The notes beneath the pieces are model-generated. The model was not told the DNA's origin. It saw nothing but the letters and a program-made list of their open reading frames with translations, and ran no database searches. From assembly GCF_054482595.1 (NCBI RefSeq), contig NZ_CM137008.1: a stretch of DNA of 64,000 nucleotides. One strand, written 5' to 3'. Within the stretch, counting starts at the first letter, position 1, and each line of letters opens with the position of its first letter. Below are positions 2,006 through 48,819 of the stretch, in pieces. The translations under genes and the position numbers were made by a program.

Positions 2006-2590
2006 TTATTCCATAACAGGGATTGCAGGCCACTCAATATCAGGTGCTACTGATGTATCAACTCGGTTCAGCAATACCCGATATGTCTTCCATGCCGCCA
2101 GTAACAATATCTCCTCCTCCGTCGCAATATCCAAATCTACCGCATCCTGAAGCGGCGCAATATGCTCACTGGCTACCCGCATGAGGCTGTTTTTTGTTTC
2201 TTCCGCCTCCCGTATACGAAACTGTTTTTCTGCTTCTGCATCTTTCACCCAGGTTGTGCCGTTCCACTTCTGATATTCCCCATCCGGCGACAACCAGGTG
2301 ACATTTTCCGGTAATGAGCCGAGTTCAGAAATAAATAACGCGTCCCCTGATGCCACGTCATAAACTGTTTTACCCCGATGGTCTTCAACAAGATGCCACG
2401 ATGCCTCATCACTGTTGAAAACAGCCACGAAGCCAGCCGGAATATCTGGCGGTGCAATATCGGTACTGTTTGCTGGCAGACCTGTATGAGGCGGAATGTA
2501 TGCGTCACCTTCACCAATAAATTCATTAGTTCCGGCCAGCAGATTATAAATTGTTATGGTCCGTGGTTGTTCACTCATTCTGAATGCCAT
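2006..2590 (-). CDS. tfa: Tail fibre assembly protein Tfa (194 aa)
   Basis: 194-aa ORF directly downstream of stf with 1-nt overlap; length and sequence match remembered lambda orf-194. Confidence 0.85.
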
Positions 2591-5500
2591 TATGCAAGCC
2601 TCACAATATAGTTAAATGCGATGTTTTTGACGGTGTTTTCCGCGTTACCAGCAGCGTTAACGGTGATGGTGTGTCCGTGTGAGCCAATCGCAACGGAGTG
2701 CGTATGAGCACCAATACCGACAGTATGCGCGTGTGCACCTGCACTTGCAGCAGTACCTGACACCGGGTGGGTATGCGCTCCGGCTGACGATGTGCCAGTA
2801 CTCGAGCCTGCACGAGACGCACCTTTGAGGGCTTTATCGCCCTGCTCGGTATTGCCAGATGGGTAACAGGCAACCGTGTGTGTATGTGCCCCTGCAGAAG
2901 CAGCCGTACCACTGACACTATGGGTGTGCGCTCCGGTGTTATTCGTGGATTTAGTGCCGTAATCAAACGACGATGTGGTTTTCGTCCCCAAATCCGTACT
3001 GGATGCACTGGCACTGTGGGTATGCGATTTAATGCCGTCCTGTTCCTGAGATAATACGGCACGACCACTGGCGGGCTTGCCCTTAATCGTCCAGCCACGC
3101 ATATCAGGGATCACGCCTGACGGATAAGCGGCTGCAAGTTTCGGGTAGGCAGATTTGTCAAAAGTCTGCCCCTGCATCAGGGCATAGCCAGACGGAACGG
3201 TATCTGATGGCCACGGGATTGGTGCACCGACTGGATAAAACTCTGCAGGAGGATGAGCCGAGGTGTAAAGCTGCGCCCACGGCGACCAGTTTGCGTCGGT
3301 CGTATCCCGTCGTGAACGAATAAATGCCGGAGCATGAGCACCGCTTGTACCACCCCAGCCGATGAGTAACTCACCTTCGCCAACGGCTGTCATCCCTTTC
3401 AGGTGAATGATATTTCCATACGCTGTTGGATATCCGTTGTTATACACCTCGTATAACTCAAGACCTGTTGCCCCCTGCGTATTGTCTGTCAGCGCGGTTA
3501 CCCGACCTTTTGAAGCCAGATTAACTGATGATACTGCTGTTCCACCTGACGGTAACGCCCCGATCTCTGATGCCGTTGGCTTATTTCTGGAGTTATAGTC
3601 CCTTCGCCAGCCAGGTGAATAATATGTTCCGTGATTAATATAGGTAAACTGGGCGTTAGTTGTTCCACCACCAGTGGAGGTGGTCGGTGTGGTAATGCGG
3701 ATCGTCATCGCTGACTTTATCCCCATTACTTCAATGACAGCTCCGGCGAGATGAATATTACCGCAGTCAGTATCAGTAATGATTTTATTATTGCCATAAG
3801 ACCAGGAACCCTTGCACATCCAGTATGGATGGTTAAATGCTCCCTGAGAATCCAGCCACTCGATAAACTGTGCAGTCGTCCAGTTTCCTGTTGTTGTGCT
3901 TACTGACCCACCGAAGGCACGGCAGGCACCAATATTTTTCGTAAAGGTATCTTTGCCAGGGATATCCGCACCGTTCTGATCTTTCTGCAGACGTTTCTCA
4001 GCATTGTCATTGGCTGCTTTTACTGCCTTTGGCGTTGCCGCCAGCGTTTCAGACGTGCTGTTGGTCGCGCTGCTTAACTGGATTATCCCTTTCTGTGCTG
4101 TCGTTGCATCCTGTGCGGTGTATTTCCCGTTAGCCAGGTCATACGCGGCCTTAACGGCTTTTGGCGTTGCCGCCTGTGACTCGGAAGTGCTGTTGGTCGC
4201 ACTGCTGAGCTGTACTATCCCCTTTTTCGTCGTGCTCGCATCCTCAAGCGCCACGGCGGATGCAATATCCTCTGCACGTTTTGCCGCTGTCTCAGCGCGC
4301 GTTGCTGCAGATTCCGCCGTACTTTTGCTCTGAGCTGCTGCCGTCGCACTACCAGCTGCCTCTGTCGCCTTCGTGGATGCCGTCGTGGCGCTACCCTTCG
4401 CTGCTGACGCCTGTCTGGTCGCCTCATCTTTTGAAGCAGACGCCGATGATGCCGATGACGCTGCCGAACTGGCTGACGATGCGGCAGCCGTTTTTGAGGA
4501 TTCTGCACGGGTTTCCGACGCTTTCGCGTTCGTTTCGGATGTCTTCGCTGCGGAAGCTGACCTCGCTGCTGCGCTGGCCTGTACAGCGGCTTCGCCAGCA
4601 TTCGTTGTGGCTGTTGAAGCAGACGATGCAGCACTTTCTGCCGACTTTCCGGCAGCGGTGGCACTGGCTGAGGCCTGCCCGGCACTTGTTGACGCGGCAC
4701 TGGCAGATGATGCAGCCGCTGTTTTTGAGCCTGCCGCAGCTGAGGCACTCTGTCCCGCTGCCGTTTCAGAAGACCTGGCGTTCGTCTCGGACGTCTTTGC
4801 CGCCTTCGCGGAATTTCCTGCCGCCGTTGCCGAGGAAGCGGCACTACTGGCGCTTGATGATGCGTTCGTTTCTGATGATTTCGCTGCCTCTTTTGAGGCC
4901 GCCGCATCCCGGGCTGAGGTGGCAGCTTCTGACGCCTTTGTGGTCGCGGCGGATGCAGAAGTGGCTGCAGATTTTTGTGACGCTGCCGCATTCGTTTCTG
5001 ACGTTTTCGCCGCACCGGCACTGGTAGCTGCCGCGCTTTTTGAGGACTCTGCAGCAGCAGCACTTTTCGATGCTTCACTGGCCTTTGTTGATGCCGTTCC
5101 TGCGCTGGAAGTCGCTGACTGAGCCGACGAAGCGGCCTGTCCGGCTGACGTGCTGGCTGCACGTGCTGAATCTGCAGCATCAGTCGCATGGGTTGCCGCC
5201 TCACGGGCAGATGTGCTGGCATCACTGGCTGACTTCTTCGCGGCTGCCGTGTTCTGTGCCACCACGGACGCGTTACGCGCCACCTCTTCCACCATCAGTT
5301 CAAAACGTCGCAATGCCTCCGGACGGGCATCATCCTCCGTCATCGCACCGAGAAAATCATTCAGCGTACCGGGTTGGGAATCTTCATACACGGTGATGGT
5401 CCCGGCATGTGACGGCGGGAATCCTTCCACCAACAGAATAACGCTGTACTGACCGTACTCAACGTCCATGCTGTAACGCCCGGCTTCATCCGGATTTTCT

Positions 5501-5625
5501 GAGGCCAGCGTGTTCACCACCACCGTGGTGCTGTTACGTTTTGCTTTCAGCTGGATTGTGCAGTTCTGAACCGGTTTTCCTGTGCCGTCTTTCAGTACAC
5601 CTGAAATCTTTACTGCCATATTCAC
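2590..5625 (-). CDS. stf: Side tail fibre protein Stf (1011 aa) with long Ala/Ser/Thr-rich repeat region and C-terminal His-x-His repeats
   Basis: Position after lom; low-complexity A/S/T repeat block and repeated GAHTHxV motifs near C-terminus typical of lambda/T4 gp37-type fibres. Confidence 0.85.
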
Positions 5626-25807: not shown

Positions 25808-26233
25808 ATGGAAGGTACTACAATGGCTCAGGTTGCCATTTTTAAACAAATATTCGATAAAGTGCGAAATAATTTAAACTATCACTGGTTTTATTCTGAA
25901 CTAAAACGTCACAATGTCTCACATTACATTTACTATTTAGCTACAGAGAATATTCATCTTGTTCTTGAAAACGATAATACGGTTTTAATAAAAGGACAGG
26001 GTAAGGTTGTAAATGTAAGATTTTCAAAAAATAAATGCCTTATAGAAGCCACCTTAAAAGGATTCAAATCAGGAGAGTTATCATTTTACGAATACAGGAA
26101 AAATCTTGCTACAGCAGGGGTTTTCAGATGGATTACAAATATCCACGAAAACAAAAGGTATTACTATACCTTTGATAATTCATTACTCTTTACTGAGAAC
26201 ATTCAGAACACTACACAAATATTTCCGCACTAA
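25808..26233 (+). CDS. Hypothetical protein, possibly DUF1398/YbcV-like, cos-proximal cargo
   Basis: 141-aa AT-rich ORF; family assignment from memory only, unverified. Confidence 0.5.
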
Positions 26234-39632: not shown

Positions 39633-40418
39633 ATGAGTACAGCACTCGCAACGCTGGCTGGGAAGCTGGCTGAACGCGTCGGCATGGATTCTGTCGACCC
39701 ACAGGAACTGATCACCACTCTTCGCCAGACGGCATTTAAAGGTGATGCCAGCGATGCGCAGTTCATCGCATTGCTGATCGTCGCCAACCAGTACGGCCTT
39801 AATCCGTGGACGAAAGAAATTTACGCCTTCCCTGACAAGCAGAACGGCATCGTTCCGGTGGTGGGCGTTGATGGCTGGTCCCGTATCATCAATGAAAACC
39901 AGCAGTTTGATGGCATGGACTTTGAGCAGGACAATGAATCCTGCACATGCCGGATTTACCGCAAGGACCGCAATCATCCGATCTGCGTTACCGAGTGGAT
40001 GGATGAATGCCGCCGCGAACCATTCAAAACCCGCGAAGGCAGAGAAATCACGGGGCCGTGGCAGTCGCATCCCAAACGGATGTTACGGCATAAAGCCATG
40101 ATTCAGTGTGCCCGTCTCGCCTTCGGATTTGCTGGTATCTATGACAAGGATGAAGCCGAGCGCATTGTCGAAAATACCGCATACACTGCAGAACGTCAGC
40201 CGGAACGCGACATCACTCCGGTTAACGATGAAACCATGCAGGAGATTAACACTCTGCTGATTGCCCTGGATAAAACATGGGATGACGACTTATTGCCGCT
40301 CTGTTCCCAGATATTTCGCCGCGACATTCGAGCATCGTCAGAACTGACACAGGCCGAAGCAGTGAAAGCTCTTGGATTCCTGAAACAGAAAGCCACTGAG
40401 CAGAAGGTGGCAGCATGA
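39633..40418 (+). CDS. bet: Bet (Red-beta single-strand annealing protein)
   Basis: 261-aa ORF, lambda length/sequence. Confidence 0.95.
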
Positions 40419-41095
40419 CACCGGACATTATCCTGCAGCGTACCGGGATCGACGTGAGAGCTGTCGAACAGGGGGATGATGCGTGGCACAAATTACGGCT
40501 CGGCGTCATCACCGCTTCAGAGGTTCACAATGTGATAGCAAAACCCCGCTCCGGAAAGAAATGGCCTGACATGAAAATGTCCTACTTCCACACCCTGCTT
40601 GCCGAGGTTTGCACCGGTGTGGCTCCGGAAGTTAACGCTAAGGCGCTGGCCTGGGGAAAACAGTACGAGAACGACGCCAGAGCCCTCTTTGAGTTCACTT
40701 CCGGCGTGAATGTTACTGAATCCCCGATCATCTATCGCGACGAAAGTATGCGCACCGCCTGCTCTCCCGATGGTTTATGCAGTGACGGCAACGGCCTTGA
40801 ACTGAAATGCCCGTTTACCTCCCGGGATTTCATGAAGTTCCGGCTCGGTGGTTTCGAGGCCATAAAGTCGGCTTACATGGCCCAGGTGCAGTACAGCATG
40901 TGGGTGACGCGAAAAGATGCCTGGTACTTTGCCAACTATGACCCGCGCATGAAGCGTGAAGGCCTGCATTATGTCGTGATTGAGCGGAATGAAAAGTACA
41001 TGGCGAGTTTTGACGAGATGGTGCCGGAGTTCATCGAAAAAATGGACGAGGCACTGGCTGAAATTGGTTTTGTATTTGGGGAGCAATGGCGATGA
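40415..41095 (+). CDS. exo: Exo (Red-alpha 5'-3' exonuclease)
   Basis: 226-aa ORF, lambda length/sequence. Confidence 0.95.
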
Positions 41096-41828: not shown

Positions 41829-42050
41829 ATGGCAGACATCATTGATTCAGCATCAGAAATTGAAGAATTACAGCGCAATACAGCAATAAAAATGCGTCGT
41901 CTGAACTACCAGACTATATCCGCCACTCATTGTTGTGAGTGTGGCGATCCCATAGATGAACGAAGACGCCTGGTCGTTCAGGGTTGTCGGACTTGTGCAA
42001 GTTGCCAGGAGGATCTGGAGCTTATCAGTAAACAGAGAGGTTCGAAGTGA
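41829..42050 (+). CDS. TraR/DksA-family C4 zinc-finger protein (lambda Orf73-like)
   Basis: 73 aa with CxxC...CxxC motif (CCECG ... CRTCASC). Confidence 0.8.
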   Translation: MADIIDSASEIEELQRNTAIKMRRLNYQTISATHCCECGDPIDERRRLVVQGCRTCASCQEDLELISKQRGSK

Positions 42051-42454
42051 GCGAAATTAACTCTCAGGCACTGCGTGAAGCGGCAGAGAAAGCCGGTGAA
42101 GATAAGTGGCAGGCTAAAAAAATAAATGGTGATTTTTTCGTTATTCGTCACGGTAGTTATACAAGACAGCATGGCTACACATCGTATCAACCCATTGCGG
42201 AGATTGATTGTAAGCCAGTCCGGGATTTTGTTGCCAAGGCTAATCCGGCTACCGTGCTGGAATTACTGGATGAACTGGAAGCAGCAAAAAAGCGCATTGC
42301 AGAACTGGAAGCGCGGGAAATACTGCTCCCGGAACGTAGCAGCATGCTTCATCGAACAGATTTTCACGATGATTACCAAACGGTAATGGCATACAAAGTT
42401 TCTGAAGTCATCGATGCAATCCGCGCTACTGGCATTCGCATCAAAGGAGAGTGA
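42047..42454 (+). CDS. Hypothetical early-left protein (possibly Ea22-like)
   Basis: 135-aa ORF, coiled-coil segment; no firm motif. Confidence 0.5.
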   Translation: MSEINSQALREAAEKAGEDKWQAKKINGDFFVIRHGSYTRQHGYTSYQPIAEIDCKPVRDFVAKANPATVLELLDELEAAKKRIAELEAREILLPERSSMLHRTDFHDDYQTVMAYKVSEVIDAIRATGIRIKGE

Positions 42455-43211
42455 GATGATTCACTACCACGGTGGGCCTATTACTCCTGATACGTGCGCA
42501 ATGAGGGCATGGAAAGGGCGACATGCGTTTATCAGTTTTGCGCATTCAGGCCAGATCAATCTCGCGGCTGAATACTGTCAGTCGTTCGCGCTGGACAACG
42601 GTGCATTCACCGCCTGGAAAGCAGCTGGCAAAAACAAAATCGACTGGAGCGATTACTACGAGTTTGTTGCTCGCTGGAAGAATCACCCAGGATTCGATTT
42701 TGCCATTATCCCGGATATTATTGATGGCGGAGAGGAGGAAAATGATGCGCTTCTGAATGAGTGGCCTCACGGAAAACTAGCTGGCGTTCCAGTGTGGCAC
42801 ATGAATGAAAGTGACGCGCGATTTATTCATTTGTGCAATGAGTTTCCGCGAGTGGCTATCGGTAGTTGTGGCGACTATGACGTAAAGCGCCCAACTCTTG
42901 CGGTAGCCAGAATGAAAGACCTGATTCGTCACATTGTTGATGGGCATGGTCAGCCGGTTACGAAACTACATGGATTGCGCATGTTAAATCCGCTGATATT
43001 CACAAAATTACCCTTAGCCAGCGCAGATAGTACGAACGTCGCTCGAAACATCGGTATTGATAAAGCCTGGTCTAGGGCTTATGCACCTGCAAGTAAAGAG
43101 ACACGCGCAGCATTAATGGTAGAACGGATTGAGGCACACAATAGCCCTGGTTCTCTTGCGTATTGTGAACAACGCGACCGCTTTGAAATGCAATTGCAAC
43201 TAGCAGTTTAA
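42414..43211 (+). CDS. Hypothetical protein (likely start MIHYHGG at 42456; about 251 aa)
   Basis: Long ORF with typical codon usage; no motif I can assign with confidence. Confidence 0.6.
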   Translation: MQSALLAFASKESEMIHYHGGPITPDTCAMRAWKGRHAFISFAHSGQINLAAEYCQSFALDNGAFTAWKAAGKNKIDWSDYYEFVARWKNHPGFDFAIIPDIIDGGEEENDALLNEWPHGKLAGVPVWHMNESDARFIHLCNEFPRVAIGSCGDYDVKRPTLAVARMKDLIRHIVDGHGQPVTKLHGLRMLNPLIFTKLPLASADSTNVARNIGIDKAWSRAYAPASKETRAALMVERIEAHNSPGSLAYCEQRDRFEMQLQLAV

Positions 43212-43221
43212 GGACTAACAA

Positions 43222-44019
43222 ATGACCACTATTACCAAAGAACGTATTGAATTGTTCATTAAAAATCCGCTTGAAAACGGACTTACTCGTGGCGAACAAA
43301 TGGAACTGGCACGAATTGCACTGGCATCACTGGAACGCGAACTGATTCGCCACGAGCATGCCAAATGGTCTGACTCCACATTTGGCTGCGTTGGCCCCAT
43401 TGGTCCACTGAAACACCTCTCAAAAGAGGCTCTGGAAGCCGCAGCCGAACCAGACGATCTCAGCGAGTGGGCTGATATGCATTTCCTGTTGTGGGATGCA
43501 CAGCGCCGTGCTGGCATCAGCGATGCTGAAATTACCGCTGCTATGGAAGATAAATTGAAGATCAACATGGAGCGCCAGTGGCCTGAACCAATAGATGGTG
43601 AGCCTCGCTTGCACATTAAAGAACCCGGCAACTCTCCGGTAATTCCGGATGGTTTATCCACGGTATGCGCTGAGGCTTATCAGGTTGTAGGAGTTATGGC
43701 AGATGCGCTTGGTGTATTCGGTGATGCAGCAGTACAGAAAGTTCTGGATAACCTGTCACAGCAAAAACTTGTTCACAGAGATGTGCTGCCGTTCTCGCTT
43801 CCGGTGACTCCGGATGGTTGGATAAGCTGTAGTGAGCGAATGCCGAAAGAAACGGGTGACATTATTGTTGTTTCGGATGGCATTGTAATGTCCGGGATTT
43901 CTTATTCTCGTCGTGACGGGTTCTATATAGCCGCATTGGAGTACGACGACGATGAGCCAATTGGCGGTGTAACCCACTGGATGCCTCTACCAGAACCGCC
44001 TCGATTAAAGGAGCTATAA
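43222..44019 (+). CDS. Phage protein with C-terminal DUF551-like domain (N-terminal part possibly DUF550-like)
   Basis: 265-aa ORF; C-terminal W..C.ERMP ... VTHWMPLPEPP pattern typical of DUF551. Confidence 0.6.
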   Translation: MTTITKERIELFIKNPLENGLTRGEQMELARIALASLERELIRHEHAKWSDSTFGCVGPIGPLKHLSKEALEAAAEPDDLSEWADMHFLLWDAQRRAGISDAEITAAMEDKLKINMERQWPEPIDGEPRLHIKEPGNSPVIPDGLSTVCAEAYQVVGVMADALGVFGDAAVQKVLDNLSQQKLVHRDVLPFSLPVTPDGWISCSERMPKETGDIIVVSDGIVMSGISYSRRDGFYIAALEYDDDEPIGGVTHWMPLPEPPRLKEL

Positions 44020-44133
44020 TAGTGAACTATTATATCTATTTGTATTAAAAGAGTTTTTATAAAATAAATCTTCCAAAGCATGTAAAAACACTGTTAATCT
44101 TAACGTGTGTGAAACGTGAAGAGAGGTGTTGAA

Positions 44134-44415
44134 ATGAGCATTCATGATTTGTGTGAAGATCAAGAGCAATGGGCTATGCAGACCCTTATGGGATCAGGAG
44201 TTCTTGCAAGGTGCAGAATCCATAACGATGTAATTTTAGACAGCGGAAATGATGCTTCTTCTGCTTATAAATTAGGAACTTACCTATATCAAAAAGATAA
44301 TAGCTGCAACTTATTCAATACTCTTACTGAAGCCCGCGACGCAATAAAGGATGCATATGAATCGTATTGTGGGATCGATGATTGCCCACAATGCTCAAAA
44401 TACATTGACGATTAA
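44134..44415 (+). CDS. ea8.5: Ea8.5-like protein (93 aa; Cys-containing)
   Basis: Length matches lambda Ea8.5; C-terminal CPQC...IDD motif; start placed at MSIHDL. Confidence 0.6.
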   Translation: MSIHDLCEDQEQWAMQTLMGSGVLARCRIHNDVILDSGNDASSAYKLGTYLYQKDNSCNLFNTLTEARDAIKDAYESYCGIDDCPQCSKYIDD

Positions 44416-44503
44416 TAATATGAACAAGTAACTATCCTCGCACTCGCGGGGATTTCTTTTATCTGAACTCGCTACGGCGAGTTTTGTTTTATGGAGATGA
44501 TAA

Positions 44504-44671
44504 ATGCACTTCCGAGTTACAGGTGAATGGAATGGAGAACCATTCAACAGAGTTATCGAAGCCGAGAACATCAGCGACTGCTATGACCACTGGATGCTGT
44601 GGGCGCAGATAGCACATGCAGACGTAACCAATATTCGAATTGAAGAACTGAAAGAACACCAAGCCGCCTGA
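44504..44671 (+). CDS. Small ORF (55 aa) upstream of xis, followed by hairpin/T-run
   Basis: Manual translation MHFRVTGEWNGEPFNRVIEAENISDCYDHWMLWAQIAHADVTNIRIEELKEHQAA; below track threshold. Confidence 0.45.
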   Translation: MHFRVTGEWNGEPFNRVIEAENISDCYDHWMLWAQIAHADVTNIRIEELKEHQAA

Positions 44672-44710: not shown

Positions 44711-44929
44711 ATGTACTTGACACTTCAGGAGTGGAACGCACGCCAGCGACGCCCAAGAAGCCTTGAAACAGTTCGTCGATGGGTACGCGAGTGCAGGATA
44801 TTCCCTCCTCCGGTTAAGGATGGAAGAGAGTATCTGTTCCACGAATCAGCGGTAAAGGTTGACTTAAATCGACCAGTAACAGGTAGCCTTTTGAAGAGGA
44901 TCAGAAATGGGAAGAAGGCGAAGTCATGA
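44711..44929 (+). CDS. xis: Excisionase Xis
   Basis: 72-aa ORF MYLTLQEWNARQRRPRSLETVRRWVRECRIFPPPV matches lambda Xis; 23-nt overlap with int. Confidence 0.95.
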   Translation: MYLTLQEWNARQRRPRSLETVRRWVRECRIFPPPVKDGREYLFHESAVKVDLNRPVTGSLLKRIRNGKKAKS

Positions 44930-45980
44930 GCGCCGGGATTTACCCCCTAACCTTTATATAAGAAACAATGGATATTACTGCTACAGGGACCCAAGGACGG
45001 GTAAAGAGTTTGGATTAGGCCGAGACAGGAGGATAGCAATCACTGAAGCAATACAGGCCAATATTGAGTTACTCTCAGACAGCGGACGCAAATCACTGAT
45101 AGACAGAATTAAAGGCGGTGACGCAATCACTCTTCATGTGTGGCTTGACCGATATGAAACAATCCTCACCGAAAGGGGGATCAGGCCGAAAACTCTACTC
45201 GACTACGCCAGCAAAATCAGGGCAATCCGAAGAAAATTGCCGGACAAACCGCTCACTGACATATCAACGAAAGAAGTGGCAGCAATGCTAAACACCTACG
45301 TAGCAGAAGGTAAAGCAGCTTCCGCAAAATTAATCAGGTCAACCCTTGTTGACGTTTTTCGTGAAGCAATAGCCGAGGGGCATGTGGCAACGAATCCGGT
45401 AACAGCAACCCGTACAGCAAAGTCAGAAGTAAGGCGCTCAAGGCTGACAGCTAATGAGTATGTCGAGATTTACCATGCAGCCGAACCTCTCCCTATCTGG
45501 CTAAGGCTGGCGATGGATTTGGCCGTCGTTACAGGGCAGAGAGTCGGCGATTTGTGCAGAATGAAATGGTCAGACATAAACGACAACCATCTTCACATTA
45601 AACAGAGTAAAACAGGGGCTAAACTCGCCATTCCGCTAACGCTAACGATTGACGCGCTCAATATCTCATTGGCTGATACACTACAGAAATGCAGGGAGGC
45701 CAGCAGCAGTGAAACTATAATCGCATCAAAGCATCACGATCCGCTTTCCCCGAAAACAGTATCAAAGTATTTTACAAAGGCGAGAAATGCATCTGGCCTC
45801 TCATTTGATGGAAACCCGCCAACATTCCATGAACTGCGTAGCCTGTCAGCGAGGCTATACCGGAACCAGATTGGCGATAAGTTTGCTCAACGTCTTCTCG
45901 GGCATAAATCAGATTCAATGGCGGCGCGGTATAGGGACAGCCGTGGACGGGAATGGGACAAAATTGAAATCGACAAATGA
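44907..45980 (+). CDS. int: Tyrosine integrase Int (lambda-type; N-terminal arm-binding domain lambda-identical, core-binding region divergent)
   Basis: 357-aa ORF; N-terminal ~55 aa identical to remembered lambda Int, divergence after residue ~56, conserved catalytic C-terminus (HELRSL ... LLGH ... Y). Confidence 0.95.
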   Translation: MGRRRSHERRDLPPNLYIRNNGYYCYRDPRTGKEFGLGRDRRIAITEAIQANIELLSDSGRKSLIDRIKGGDAITLHVWLDRYETILTERGIRPKTLLDYASKIRAIRRKLPDKPLTDISTKEVAAMLNTYVAEGKAASAKLIRSTLVDVFREAIAEGHVATNPVTATRTAKSEVRRSRLTANEYVEIYHAAEPLPIWLRLAMDLAVVTGQRVGDLCRMKWSDINDNHLHIKQSKTGAKLAIPLTLTIDALNISLADTLQKCREASSSETIIASKHHDPLSPKTVSKYFTKARNASGLSFDGNPPTFHELRSLSARLYRNQIGDKFAQRLLGHKSDSMAARYRDSRGREWDKIEIDK

Positions 45981-46074
45981 TTTTATTTTGACTAATAATG
46001 ACCTACTTACATTAATTTACTGATAATTAAAGAGATTTTAAATATACAACTTATTCACCTTAAGTGCACCGACC
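45981..46074. other. Int-proximal prophage/chromosome junction (attL-type site) and torS upstream region
   Basis: 94-bp AT-rich segment between int stop and torS start; core sequence cannot be defined without the other junction. Confidence 0.5.
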
Positions 46075-48819
46075 GTGAATTTAACCCTGACCCGAAGACT
46101 CTGGATGGGCTTTGCCCTGATGGCACTGTTAACCCTGACCAGTACCCTGGTGGGATGGTACAACCTGCGCTTTATCAGCCAGGTGGAAAAAGACAATACT
46201 CAGGCATTGATTCCTACCATGAATATGGCGCGCCAGTTGAGCGAAGCCAGCGCCTGGGAACTTTTCGCCGCGCAGAACCTGACCAGTGCCGATAACGAAA
46301 AGATGTGGCAGGCGCAGGGGCGAATGCTCACCGCACAAAGCCTGAAGATTAATGCGTTGCTGCAAGCGTTACGGGAACAAGGTTTTGATACCACCGCTAT
46401 TGAACAACAGGAGCAGGAGATCTCCCGTTCGTTACGTCAGCAAGGGGAACTGGTGGGGCAGCGTTTGCAACTGCGCCAGCAACAACAGCGACTCAGTCAG
46501 CAGATAGTCGCTGCCGCCGATGAGATCGCACGCCTGGCGCAAGGTCAGGCGAATAATGCGACAACTTCCGCTGGAGCGACCCAGGCCGGGATTTACGATT
46601 TGATCGAACAAGATCAGCGTCAGGCTGCTGAAAGTGCACTCGACCGGCTGATTGATATCGATCTTGAGTATGTTAACCAGATGAATGAACTGCGCCTTAG
46701 CGCCCTGCGGGTGCAGCAAATGGTGATGAATCTGGGGCTGGAACAGATCCAGAAAAATGCGCCAACGCTGGAAAGGCAGCTCAATAATGCGGTGAAAATT
46801 CTGCAACGTCGGCAAATACGCATTGAAGATCCGGGAGTTCGTGCGCAGGTCGCAACAACGTTAACTACCGTTAGCCAATATAGCGATCTGTTGGCGCTGT
46901 TCCAGCAGGACAGTGAAATCAGCAATCACCTGCAAACTCTCGCCCAAAATAATATCGCCCAGTTCGCGCAGTTTAGTAGCGAAGTCAGTCAGCTGGTCGA
47001 CACCATTGAGCTGCGCAATCAGCATGGACTGGCGCATCTGGAAAAAGCCAGTGCACGCGGGCAATACAGCCTGTTATTGCTGGGGATGGTTTCACTTTGC
47101 GCACTGATTCTGATCCTCTGGCGCGTGGTTTATCGCTCAGTCACGCGTCCACTTGCCGAACAAACGCAGGCGCTGCAACGGCTGCTGGACGGTGATATTG
47201 ACTCCCCTTTTCCGGAAACCGCTGGCGTACGGGAGCTGGATACCATCGGGCGGCTGATGGATGCGTTTCGCAGCAGTGTTCATGCACTGAATCGCCACCG
47301 CGAACAGCTGGCGGCGCAGGTCAAAGCACGTACAGCTGAATTGCAGGAACTGGTGATAGAACACCGACAGGCACGGGCGGAAGCAGAAAAAGCCAGCCAG
47401 GCAAAATCGGCGTTTCTGGCGGCGATGAGCCATGAGATCCGCACACCGCTGTACGGTATTCTCGGCACCGCACAGCTACTGGCAGATAACCCCACACTTA
47501 ACGCCCAGCGTGATGATTTGCGGGCAATTACTGACTCTGGTGAATCGTTGCTGACCATCCTCAACGATATTCTCGATTATTCGGCTATCGAAGCAGGTGG
47601 CAAGAATGTTTCGGTCAGCGATGAGCCCTTTGAACCGCGCCCGCTGCTGGAAAGTACCCTGCAATTAATGAGCGGACGGGTGAAAGGTCGCCCGATTCGC
47701 CTGGCAACGGCAATTGCCGATGATGTACCGAGCGCGTTAATGGGCGATCCGCGGCGTATTCGTCAGGTCATTACCAACCTGTTGAGCAACGCCCTGCGTT
47801 TTACTGACGAAGGGCAGATCGTTTTACGTAGCCGTACTGATGGTGAGCAATGGCTGGTCGAAGTGGAAGACAGCGGCTGCGGTATTGATCCCGCGAAACT
47901 GGCAGAAATCTTCCAGCCATTTATTCAGGTAAGTGGCAAACGCGGCGGCACCGGGCTGGGGCTGACTATCAGTAGCCGTCTGGCCCAGGCGATGGGCGGC
48001 GAACTGAGCGCCACCAGCACGCTGGAGGTTGGAAGCTGTTTTTGTTTACGCTTGCCGTTACGTGTTGCCACAGCACCCGCGCCAAAAACAGCCAATCAGG
48101 CGGTGCGTCTGGACGGTTTACGTTTGCTGTTAATTGAAGATAACCCGCTAACCCAGCGAATTACCGTTGAGATGCTGAACACCAGTGGTGCGCAGGTTGT
48201 TGCTATTGGCAATGCCGCGCAGGCTTTAGAGACACTGCAAAATAGCGAACCGTTTGCTGCCGCACTGGTGGATTTTGATCTGCCGGATATCGACGGCATT
48301 ACCCTTGCCCGGCAACTGGCACAGCAATATCCGTCGCTGGTTTTGATTGGCTTTAGCGCTCATGTCATTGACGAAACGCTGCGCCAGCGTACCAGTTCAC
48401 TATTTCGCGGGATTATCCCTAAACCGGTGCCGCGTGAAGTGCTCGGTCAGTTACTGGCGCACTATCTCCACCTGCAAGTCAATAACGATCTACCACTTGA
48501 TGTATCGCAACTCAATGAAGATGCTCAATTAATGGGGACGGAGAAGATCCACGAATGGCTGGCATTATTTAAACAACATGCCCTGCCGCTTCTCGATGAA
48601 ATCGACATTGCCCGCGCCAGCCAGGACAGCGAGAAAATAAAGCGTGCCGCGCATCAGCTAAAAAGCAGTTGCTCGAGTCTGGGAATGCGTAGCGCCAGTC
48701 AGCTATGCGCACAACTGGAGCAGCAGCCATTATCTGCCCCCCTTCCACACGAAGAAATTACACGCAGTGTTGCCGCTCTGGAAGCATGGTTGAATAAGAA
48801 AGACCTGAACGCGATTTGA
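46075..48819 (+). CDS. torS: TMAO sensor histidine kinase TorS
   Basis: 914-aa [24 protein letters not shown]; HisKA/HATPase/receiver/HPt architecture. Confidence 0.95.

Follow-up and report, generated by a model that had tools for sequence, protein, structure and literature searches.

Three genes in the exo-xis interval of a lambda-type prophage

We analyzed a stretch of 64,000 nucleotides (nt) from contig NZ_CM137008.1 (assembly GCF_054482595.1), here called the window, which holds most of a lambda-type Escherichia coli prophage inserted upstream of torS. Three open reading frames (ORFs), designated ORF-A, ORF-B, and ORF-C, are tightly packed on the + strand at 42047-44019, between a TraR/Orf73 homologue and ea8.5 (Table 1). 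The middle gene, ORF-B, very probably belongs to the phage family of DpdA DNA-guanine transglycosylases. Its neighbors on either side, ORF-A and ORF-C, fall within named families and are unremarkable members of them.

A first-pass annotation, made from the letters alone, had described this block as three unassigned genes encoding proteins of 135, roughly 251, and 265 amino acids (aa), and all three were found as described. Its flanking TraR-like and Ea8.5 genes were also recovered (matches to PF01258 and PF20735), as was the DUF551 domain that it saw in the 265-aa protein (residues 199 to 260). The gene order of the prophage bears out its placement of the block in the variable exo-xis accessory region of a lambdoid phage. 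That the composition differs from the lambda ea22 region was likewise correct: lambda has a single 549-nt ea22 gene, whereas this prophage has 1,973 nt and three genes. The word "unassigned" proved right for ORF-B alone, and there only with respect to NCBI, Pfam, and NCBIfam; ORF-A matches PF13935, and ORF-C carries DUF550 and DUF551. The same annotation had considered that all three proteins might simply be diverged Ea22, Ea31, or Ea59 homologues. This holds for ORF-A, whereas ORF-B appears to be of the DpdA type instead. For a functional tie of the three genes to the TraR-like gene, at which the annotation had hinted, we found only their shared position in the operon.

The exact protein sequences of the three ORFs are present in public collections (62, 33, and at least 1000 contigs), and their arrangement recurs, which indicates that these are real genes and not chance ORFs. 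The 2.65-kb arrangement was found in 50 of 5426 complete E. coli genomes. Matches to the flanking pieces of this 2.65-kb query were far more widespread (4155 of the 5426 genomes) than matches to ORF-B (203). The Stx1a-converting phage Stx1a_EH2115 matches the 2.65-kb segment at 99.5% over 77% of its length. The entire segment also occurs, 100% identical, at 29824-32474 of NZ_CP130669.1, a 111,450-bp nonchromosomal record of E. coli SM107. Plasmid records account for 5 of the 217 E. coli matches to ORF-B, which may indicate a phage-plasmid or a misassigned contig. An antisense ORF of 148 aa with a GTG start (43215-43661, − strand) lies wholly inside ORF-C, lacks support, and is probably spurious.

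ORF-B and the phage DpdA family

The stop codon of ORF-A (TGA, 42452-42454) is separated by one base from an ATG at 42456. We take this ATG as the start of ORF-B because a Shine-Dalgarno sequence precedes it at a spacing of 6 nt, all homologues begin MIH(Y/F)HG, and the NCBI annotation pipeline (PGAP) chose the same start. By the same three lines of evidence, a longer mechanical reading of 265 aa from ATG 42414 was ruled out. For each of the 203 complete E. coli genomes with the gene, RefSeq gives the product as "hypothetical protein," a name also borne by the 90% identity cluster to which ORF-B belongs (1287 members). The gene is well preserved: full-length copies number 200 among the 203 in E. 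coli, and the match reaches at least 95% nucleotide identity in 202 of these records.

Comparison with phage protein families points to DpdA. ORF-B matched PHROG 887, "queuine tRNA-ribosyltransferase," with an E value of 7.6e-102, and a search of 1.84 billion representatives (E up to 1e-3) returned 1470 clusters at 50% identity. From these data we built a family alignment of 66 diverse relatives, down to about 33% identity. Aligned to the DpdA protein of phage CAjan (gp35, YP_009196829), the 66-member profile gave an hhalign probability of 98.9% (E = 1.5e-17, 174 columns). Deletion of CAjan gp35 abolishes dPreQ0, the deoxynucleoside of the queuosine precursor preQ0 (PMC6884629, PMC7544227). 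ORF-B is also 35% identical to the DpdA of phage 7-11 (tblastn).

The alignment extends to the active site. Kot et al. assigned Asp63, Phe67, Asp105, His132, Gly153/154, Phe189, and Asp206 to the active site of CAjan DpdA (PMC7544227); these residues align to D47, F51, D90, H115, G136/S137, L174, and D191 of ORF-B. Across the 66 relatives, D47, H172, D191, and S192 are invariant (66/66), D87 is conserved in 65, and H115 and G136 are nearly invariant. Position 51, the base-stacking aromatic four residues after D47, is F or Y in 64 of the 66. D47, F51, H115, G136, H172, and D191 stayed invariant in an 11-sequence alignment that also took in CAjan, 7-11, and three relatives with precursor-linked neighbors (a YhhQ-family gene for two of them, QueD for the third). 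In the Gly-Gly pocket, G136 aligns with Gly153, and the second Gly is Ser137 in ORF-B. Selection on the protein as a whole appears strong, with about 100 columns invariant across 22 homologues down to 65% identity.

We modeled the structure of ORF-B with AlphaFold2. An earlier model built from the 22 close homologues was poor (predicted local distance difference test [pLDDT] of 61), whereas an alignment of diverse representatives gave a model with a pLDDT of 91.6, a predicted template-modeling score of 0.89, and eight strands. The predicted fold is a (beta/alpha)8 barrel like that of tRNA-guanine transglycosylase (TGT). Structure matches of the model in BFVD were phage proteins named "queuine tRNA-ribosyltransferase" (down to E = 1e-9). 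As modeled, ORF-B is a minimal TIM-barrel enzyme of 251 aa that lacks the zinc subdomain.

Several results weigh against this assignment. ORF-B itself had no match in Pfam, NCBIfam, or PADLOC (the last at E up to 0.01), and a Pfam scan of the 66 family members returned noise only. Searches of the PDB by sequence and with two family profiles gave no meaningful match, the hits being spurious ones to GCN4, Rab8, and a designed repeat protein. When the model was compared with the PDB by Foldseek, generic TIM barrels came first (TrpA, E = 3e-3) and TGT ranked 45th. Against E. coli Tgt, hhalign gave a probability of 1.7%, and neither a profile match to canonical TGT (PF01702) nor its CxCxxC...H zinc subdomain was found; cysteines 14, 41, 127, 138, and 237 of ORF-B form no cluster. 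Thus, ORF-B is linked to canonical TGT by fold only. The identity of the guanine-reading Asp is also ambiguous, since D90 pairs with CAjan Asp105 yet is kept in 36 of the 66 relatives, whereas D87 is kept in 65. ORF-B lacks the zinc site known from TGT and bacterial DpdA; however, this site is equally absent from CAjan DpdA and from Cap10 of type IV CBASS (a cyclic oligonucleotide-based antiphage signaling system) and is therefore not defining for the phage subfamily. With these points set against the profile match to CAjan and the conserved active site, we hold membership in the phage DpdA family to be very probable.

Gene context of ORF-B relatives and closest known systems

In a Drexlerviridae phage and an unrelated siphovirus from bat feces, the gene immediately following a VUT/YhhQ-family transporter gene encodes a relative of ORF-B (39 to 45% identity). 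YhhQ is the preQ0 transporter according to Hutinet et al. 2019 (PMC6884629). In a Caulobacter phage, the gene for a further relative and a QueD gene overlap. P2-like prophages have the DpdA-like gene just before replication gene A. In Pectobacterium P2-like prophages (loci L014-L016, 3280-4250), it comes directly after a TraR-like gene and is followed by gene A; in Salmonella phage SEN1 (locus L006, 1979-3313), a DUF5405 gene separates a TraR/DksA zinc-finger gene from the DpdA-like gene. A TraR-like gene also lies just upstream of the DpdA-like gene in the lambdoid window, possibly a shared habit of early operons.

The order seen here, an Ead/Ea22-like gene followed by a DpdA-like gene and a DUF550 (EaA) gene, also occurs in the P22-like Salmonella phage BTP1. 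Homologues of ORF-B nevertheless occur without an Ea22 or DUF550 neighbor in SfI, HK106, Vibrio phage D453, SEN1 and P2-like prophages, and prophages of Yersinia, Aeromonas, and Pectobacterium. Together with the difference between the 203 E. coli genomes that have ORF-B and the 50 that have the whole arrangement, this leads us to conclude that ORF-B is a cassette in its own right, inserted between two widespread genes of the ea region. An obligate three-gene module was rejected on the same grounds, homologues of ORF-B being found without relatives of ORF-A or ORF-C in several phages and prophages.

ORF-B is not a new kind of system; it is a member of a group catalogued in 2019. Supplementary Data 1 of Hutinet et al. 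lists proteins of BTP1, SPN3UB, SfI, HK106, SEN1, and Athena1 as "DpdA only," with no other pathway gene (PMC6884629). The BTP1 (SIU02687) and SPN3UB (YP_007011024) proteins are 92% identical to ORF-B, and those of SfI, HK106, SEN1, and Vibrio phage Athena1 range from 67% to 35%. Like ORF-B, they have the same length, occupy an early-operon position, and lack an accompanying deazaguanine gene. What sets ORF-B apart from the catalogued members is its setting: it belongs to a lambda-like prophage of E. coli located beside torS, and an Stx1a-converting phage carries a 98% identical copy. Among open-access papers, we found none that tested DNA modification by a lambdoid or P2-like member of this group.

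The DpdA of CAjan is a validated preQ0 DNA transglycosylase of the Queuovirinae; its catalytic Asp pair, stacking Phe, His, and Gly align with residues of ORF-B, and neither protein has a zinc-binding Cys cluster. CAjan and the prophage have the same host species, and CAjan DpdA and ORF-B are about 21 to 23% identical, ORF-B being 55 aa shorter at the C terminus. CAjan encodes FolE, QueD, QueE, QueC, and YhhQ and modifies about 32% of G; in contrast, the prophage encodes none of the five. The bacterial DpdA of Salmonella Montevideo (Dpd restriction-modification system, PDB 7UI4) differs: at 413 aa, it contains four insertions plus a structural Zn site and needs the DpdB ATPase (PMC10164549), none of which applies to ORF-B. 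No sequence-level match between ORF-B and bacterial DpdA was found in the PDB searches. The operon in which Cap10 (PDB 9NTN) works also encodes a CD-NTase and the QueC-like Cap9, and Cap10 binds the deazaguanylated N terminus of a protein. ORF-B shares 9% identity with Cap10, has no CD-NTase or Cap9 partner nearby, and gave no PADLOC match.

Proposed activity of ORF-B and alternative explanations

DpdA has been proposed to work by double displacement, in which one Asp forms a covalent intermediate and the other deprotonates the incoming 7-deazaguanine (PMC10164549), and all DpdA-type modifications are considered postreplicative (PMC10516641). On infection or induction, ORF-B would be produced with delayed-early timing and would flip guanines out of double-stranded DNA at short motifs. 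D191 would then attack C1' and displace guanine, giving a covalent enzyme-DNA intermediate, and D47 would deprotonate the incoming 7-deazaguanine, most likely preQ0, which would resolve the intermediate. Progeny DNA might thereby be shielded from guanine-reading restriction in the next host and could possibly mimic the mark by which Dpd systems recognize "self." The comparisons show the family, the fold, the conserved catalytic residues, the missing synthesis genes, and the gene context of ORF-B; that it acts on DNA, which base it inserts, how much of the DNA becomes modified, and what the phage gains we infer from them.

Supply of the precursor bears on how large the effect could be. Neither the annotation of the near-identical prophage in E. 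coli strain EC5502 nor Pfam scans revealed folE, queD, queE, queC, or yhhQ in the prophage. The base must therefore come from the queuosine pathway of the host, and partial modification is expected. Host preQ0 can suffice for some modification: a CAjan ΔqueC mutant in E. coli still gains 3.5 dPreQ0 per 10^3 nt from this source, one-twelfth of the wild-type level (PMC7544227). Other phages with DpdA only speak against a large effect, 7-11 carrying 0.02% of G as 2'-deoxy-7-amido-7-deazaguanosine (dADG) and Orion, whose host lacks the pathway, carrying no modification (PMC6884629). Given this trace in 7-11 and the null result in Orion, the effect of ORF-B may be small. On balance, comparison of sequences inclines us, by a modest amount, to the view that ORF-B-dependent deazaguanine modification of the phage's DNA is real.

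The low values in 7-11 and Orion (PMC6884629) are also what would be seen if ORF-B were effectively silent, a conserved but marginal remnant with negligible activity in E. coli owing to scarce free host preQ0, in a region of mosaic filler; the lack of any precursor synthesis or transporter gene in the prophage points the same way. We regard this explanation as doubtful. The roughly 100 columns that are invariant across 22 homologues indicate strong purifying selection, and the catalytic residues stay invariant across the 66 members down to about 33% identity. The near-complete set of full-length, closely similar E. coli copies and the size of the family (1470 clusters) are likewise hard to reconcile with a remnant, and the CAjan ΔqueC result shows that host preQ0 alone can feed a DpdA (PMC7544227).

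It is unlikely, in our judgment, that ORF-B is a TGT-fold enzyme acting on something other than DNA, either protein-linked or free 7-deazaguanine as for Cap10, in counterdefense against type IV CBASS or QatABCD, or host tRNA. Such a role would fit the lack of a zinc subdomain, as in Cap10, the His/Asp pair H172/D191, spaced like Cap10 H226/D248, and the little or no DNA modification in the DpdA-only phages tested (PMC6884629). Yet CAjan DpdA, a DNA-acting enzyme to which ORF-B is homologous in sequence (hhalign probability of 98.9%), shows both traits, the His/Asp pair and the missing zinc motif. The missing Cap9/QueC and CD-NTase partners and the empty PADLOC search (E up to 0.01) argue further against a Cap10-like role, and a role on tRNA is opposed by the lack of a tRNA-binding C-terminal domain and of similarity to E. 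coli Tgt. A more specific version, which we consider highly improbable, would have ORF-B use a Cap10-like minimal TGT scaffold for counterdefense or host manipulation, stripping or hijacking the 7-deazaguanine of CBASS or Qat or draining host preQ0 and so altering queuosine-tRNA and translation in lytic growth. To our knowledge, neither stripping of protein-linked 7-deazaguanine nor draining of preQ0 has been described for any phage protein. That the three genes form one module, in which the DUF550 enzyme tunes the dGTP and dATP pools and the Ea22-like protein assists or regulates the transglycosylase, seems to us very unlikely. The gene order shared with BTP1, the translational coupling of all three genes, and the service of DUF550 enzymes in base replacement pathways of Z-genome phages (PMC12884076) would agree with it. 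Against it stand the homologues that lack either neighbor in SfI, HK106, Vibrio D453, SEN1, and the Yersinia, Aeromonas, and Pectobacterium prophages, and the counts in complete E. coli genomes given above, with ORF-B in many more genomes than the full arrangement and the flanking pieces in many more than ORF-B. Moreover, DpdA exchanges bases after replication (PMC10516641), so a change in the deoxynucleotide pool would not be needed.

If ORF-B is active as a DNA transglycosylase, ordinary lambda-like and Shiga-toxin-converting E. coli prophages would carry 7-deazaguanine DNA by means of one 756-bp gene, and phages would borrow the queuosine precursor of their host (the gene is in 203 of the 5426 complete genomes). 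Such activity would bear on which hosts toxin-converting phages can infect and how they evade restriction, on their sensitivity to deazaguanine-targeting defenses (Dag glycosylases and Dpd systems), and on base-calling and restriction analysis of their DNA. A lambda-type phage, E. coli K-12, and que mutants together offer the easiest genetic system for the question raised in 2019 of what DpdA-only phages do. There is also an annotation gap: RefSeq, Pfam, and NCBIfam have no model for a family of about 1470 clusters, which is annotated as hypothetical everywhere.

ORF-A is a variant of Ea22

ORF-A passes the Ead_Ea22 model PF13935 well above its cutoff (64.1 bits versus 27, residues 2 to 109), and at least 1000 contigs carry the exact protein under the name ead/Ea22-like. 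Its first 14 residues are identical to those of lambda Ea22, and the two proteins share the helix start LELLDE and a C-terminal GIRIKGE tail, whereas the middle differs. At 135 aa, ORF-A is shorter than lambda Ea22 (182 aa), and BLAST aligned only residues 1 to 84, with a 27-residue gap, and the last 17 residues. Identity to the Ead/Ea22-like protein of BTP1 is ~31%, in two pieces. By these comparisons, ORF-A is a mosaic variant of the lambda Ea22 family. Its putative coiled-coil character, a label from the first-pass annotation, rests on the stretch LELLDELEAAKKRIAELEARE and on Ea22-family membership. Lambda Ea22 favors lysogeny, and its C-terminal folded domain has been described by nuclear magnetic resonance (PMC10834534). 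ORF-A would act as a variant of this type of lysis-lysogeny modulator and not as a required partner of ORF-B.

ORF-C joins DUF550 to DUF551

ORF-C consists of an N-terminal module (residues 1 to 45), DUF550, a linker, and DUF551, the first 45 residues and the linker falling into separate PHROGs. PDB sequence searches with ORF-C, as with ORF-A, returned nothing meaningful. The exact 265-aa protein has been deposited as "DUF550 domain-containing." Its DUF550 core is 48% identical to BTP1 EaA. ORF-C is of the P22/BTP1 EaA type, with a C-terminal DUF551 and a different N-terminal module. Reading the translation, we noted the acidic motifs E69xxE72 and E82xxD85 in the core, which we take to resemble the metal-binding motifs of all-alpha (MazG-type) nucleoside triphosphate pyrophosphohydrolases. 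PF04447, formerly DUF550, was named after a DUF5664-DUF550 fusion of Acinetobacter phage SH-Ab 15497 that converts dGTP and dATP to monophosphates (PMC12884076). The DUF550 domain of ORF-C probably hydrolyzes dATP and dGTP to monophosphates, judging from its family. ORF-C would be an EaA-type protein and not a required partner of ORF-B.

In EC5502, PGAP splits ORF-C into a "partial" fragment (window 43222-43341) and a 234-aa coding sequence (43315-44019), although the 265-aa frame is open. The break falls at a mosaic recombination joint; here, ~115 nt into the gene, the nucleotide similarity that Salmonella phages S107, S135, and S137 show across ORF-B comes to an end. The mosaic structure of ORF-C probably accounts for the split.

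Early-left operon and prophage setting

From exo to int, the + strand carries exo, DUF1317/orf60a, DUF1382/orf63, an orf61-like gene, TraR/Orf73, ORF-A, ORF-B, ORF-C, ea8.5, a lambdap35-like gene, xis, and int. The GTG start of ORF-A overlaps the stop codon of the TraR-like gene (GTGA), and ORF-C starts 10 nt after ORF-B with its own Shine-Dalgarno sequence, AAGGA. No sigma-70-like promoter site was found on the + strand of the three-gene block, and a terminator scan of the block found only weak terminator-like hairpins, none of them strong. Good terminator-like hairpins lie 3' of ea8.5 (44434-44453 and 44465-44484), with another at 44661. The coupled starts and stops, the lack of a promoter-like site on this strand, and the lack of a strong internal terminator suggest that the three genes are read as part of the N-antiterminated pL transcript, a step that leans on established lambda biology. 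As read from the sequence, ORF-A, ORF-B, and ORF-C form a tightly coupled translation chain after TraR/Orf73 and are independent accessory genes of the pL (early-left) operon. The GC content of the block (0.45 to 0.51) is unremarkable for this prophage.

TABLE 1 Coordinates of the three genes, their parts, and flanking features in the window
Feature	Position	Strand	Remarks
exo	40415-41095	+	
TraR/DksA-type zinc-finger protein, lambda Orf73 homologue, 73 aa	41829..42050	+	PF01258, 8.4e-09; TIGR02419, 1.6e-14; phrog_54
ORF-A, Ead/Ea22 family, 135 aa	42047..42454	+	GTG start; PF13935, 2.6e-17; phrog_1667, 1.7e-56
Shine-Dalgarno sequence AAGGAG of ORF-B	42444..42449	+	Inside the 3' end of ORF-A (translational coupling); 6-nt spacer to ATG 42456
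ORF-B, candidate stand-alone DpdA-type (TGT-fold) DNA-guanine transglycosylase, 251 aa	42456..43211	+	
Predicted active-site residues of ORF-B			D47, F51, D87/D90, H115, G136-S137, H172, D191
ORF-C, EaA-like mosaic, 265 aa	43222..44019	+	Pfam and PHROG matches
DUF550/dATP-dGTP pyrophosphohydrolase domain of ORF-C, residues 42-137	43345..43632	+	PF04447, 1.3e-40; 138 bits versus cutoff of 23
DUF551 domain of ORF-C, residues 199-260	43816..44001	+	PF04448, 7.6e-14; 52.8 bits versus cutoff of 22
Ea8.5 homologue	44116..44415	+	PF20735, 1.1e-15
Integrase	44907-45980		Prophage end
torS	46075-48819		Beyond integrase

Across the window, the genes run in the order tail fibers, tail, head, terminase, lysis, Q, nin, O/P, cI region, gam-bet-exo, and int. 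The integrase gene ends 95 nt before the torS start codon (45981-46074), which places the attachment site within the upstream regulatory region of torS. In the nin region, a lambda NinC-like protein (31081-32013, − strand) has a phosphoadenosine phosphosulfate (PAPS) reductase domain (PF01507) and also matches the PADLOC models SspD (2.2e-14), BrxP, and DndC, which are components of DNA phosphorothioation and bacteriophage exclusion (BREX) systems. It is a standard nin-region gene, and a link between it and ORF-B was rejected.

A DUF1398 gene (25808-26233, + strand) lies between the lysis cassette and terminase on the strand opposite to both, in what looks like a typical moron position; in strain EC5502 it has a YnfO-family neighbor. 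At the prophage end opposite int, just beyond the tail fiber assembly gene, a 419-aa ORF (618-1877, + strand) had no Pfam or PADLOC match. Its EC5502 counterpart is annotated as hypothetical and is followed by two further hypothetical genes, which lie outside the window. EC5502 is the best-matching genome, with an exo-xis segment that is 100% identical and a different host-range module. The side tail fiber gene is 3036 nt long here (window 2590-5625), compared to 2919 nt in EC5502 (4377888-4380806).

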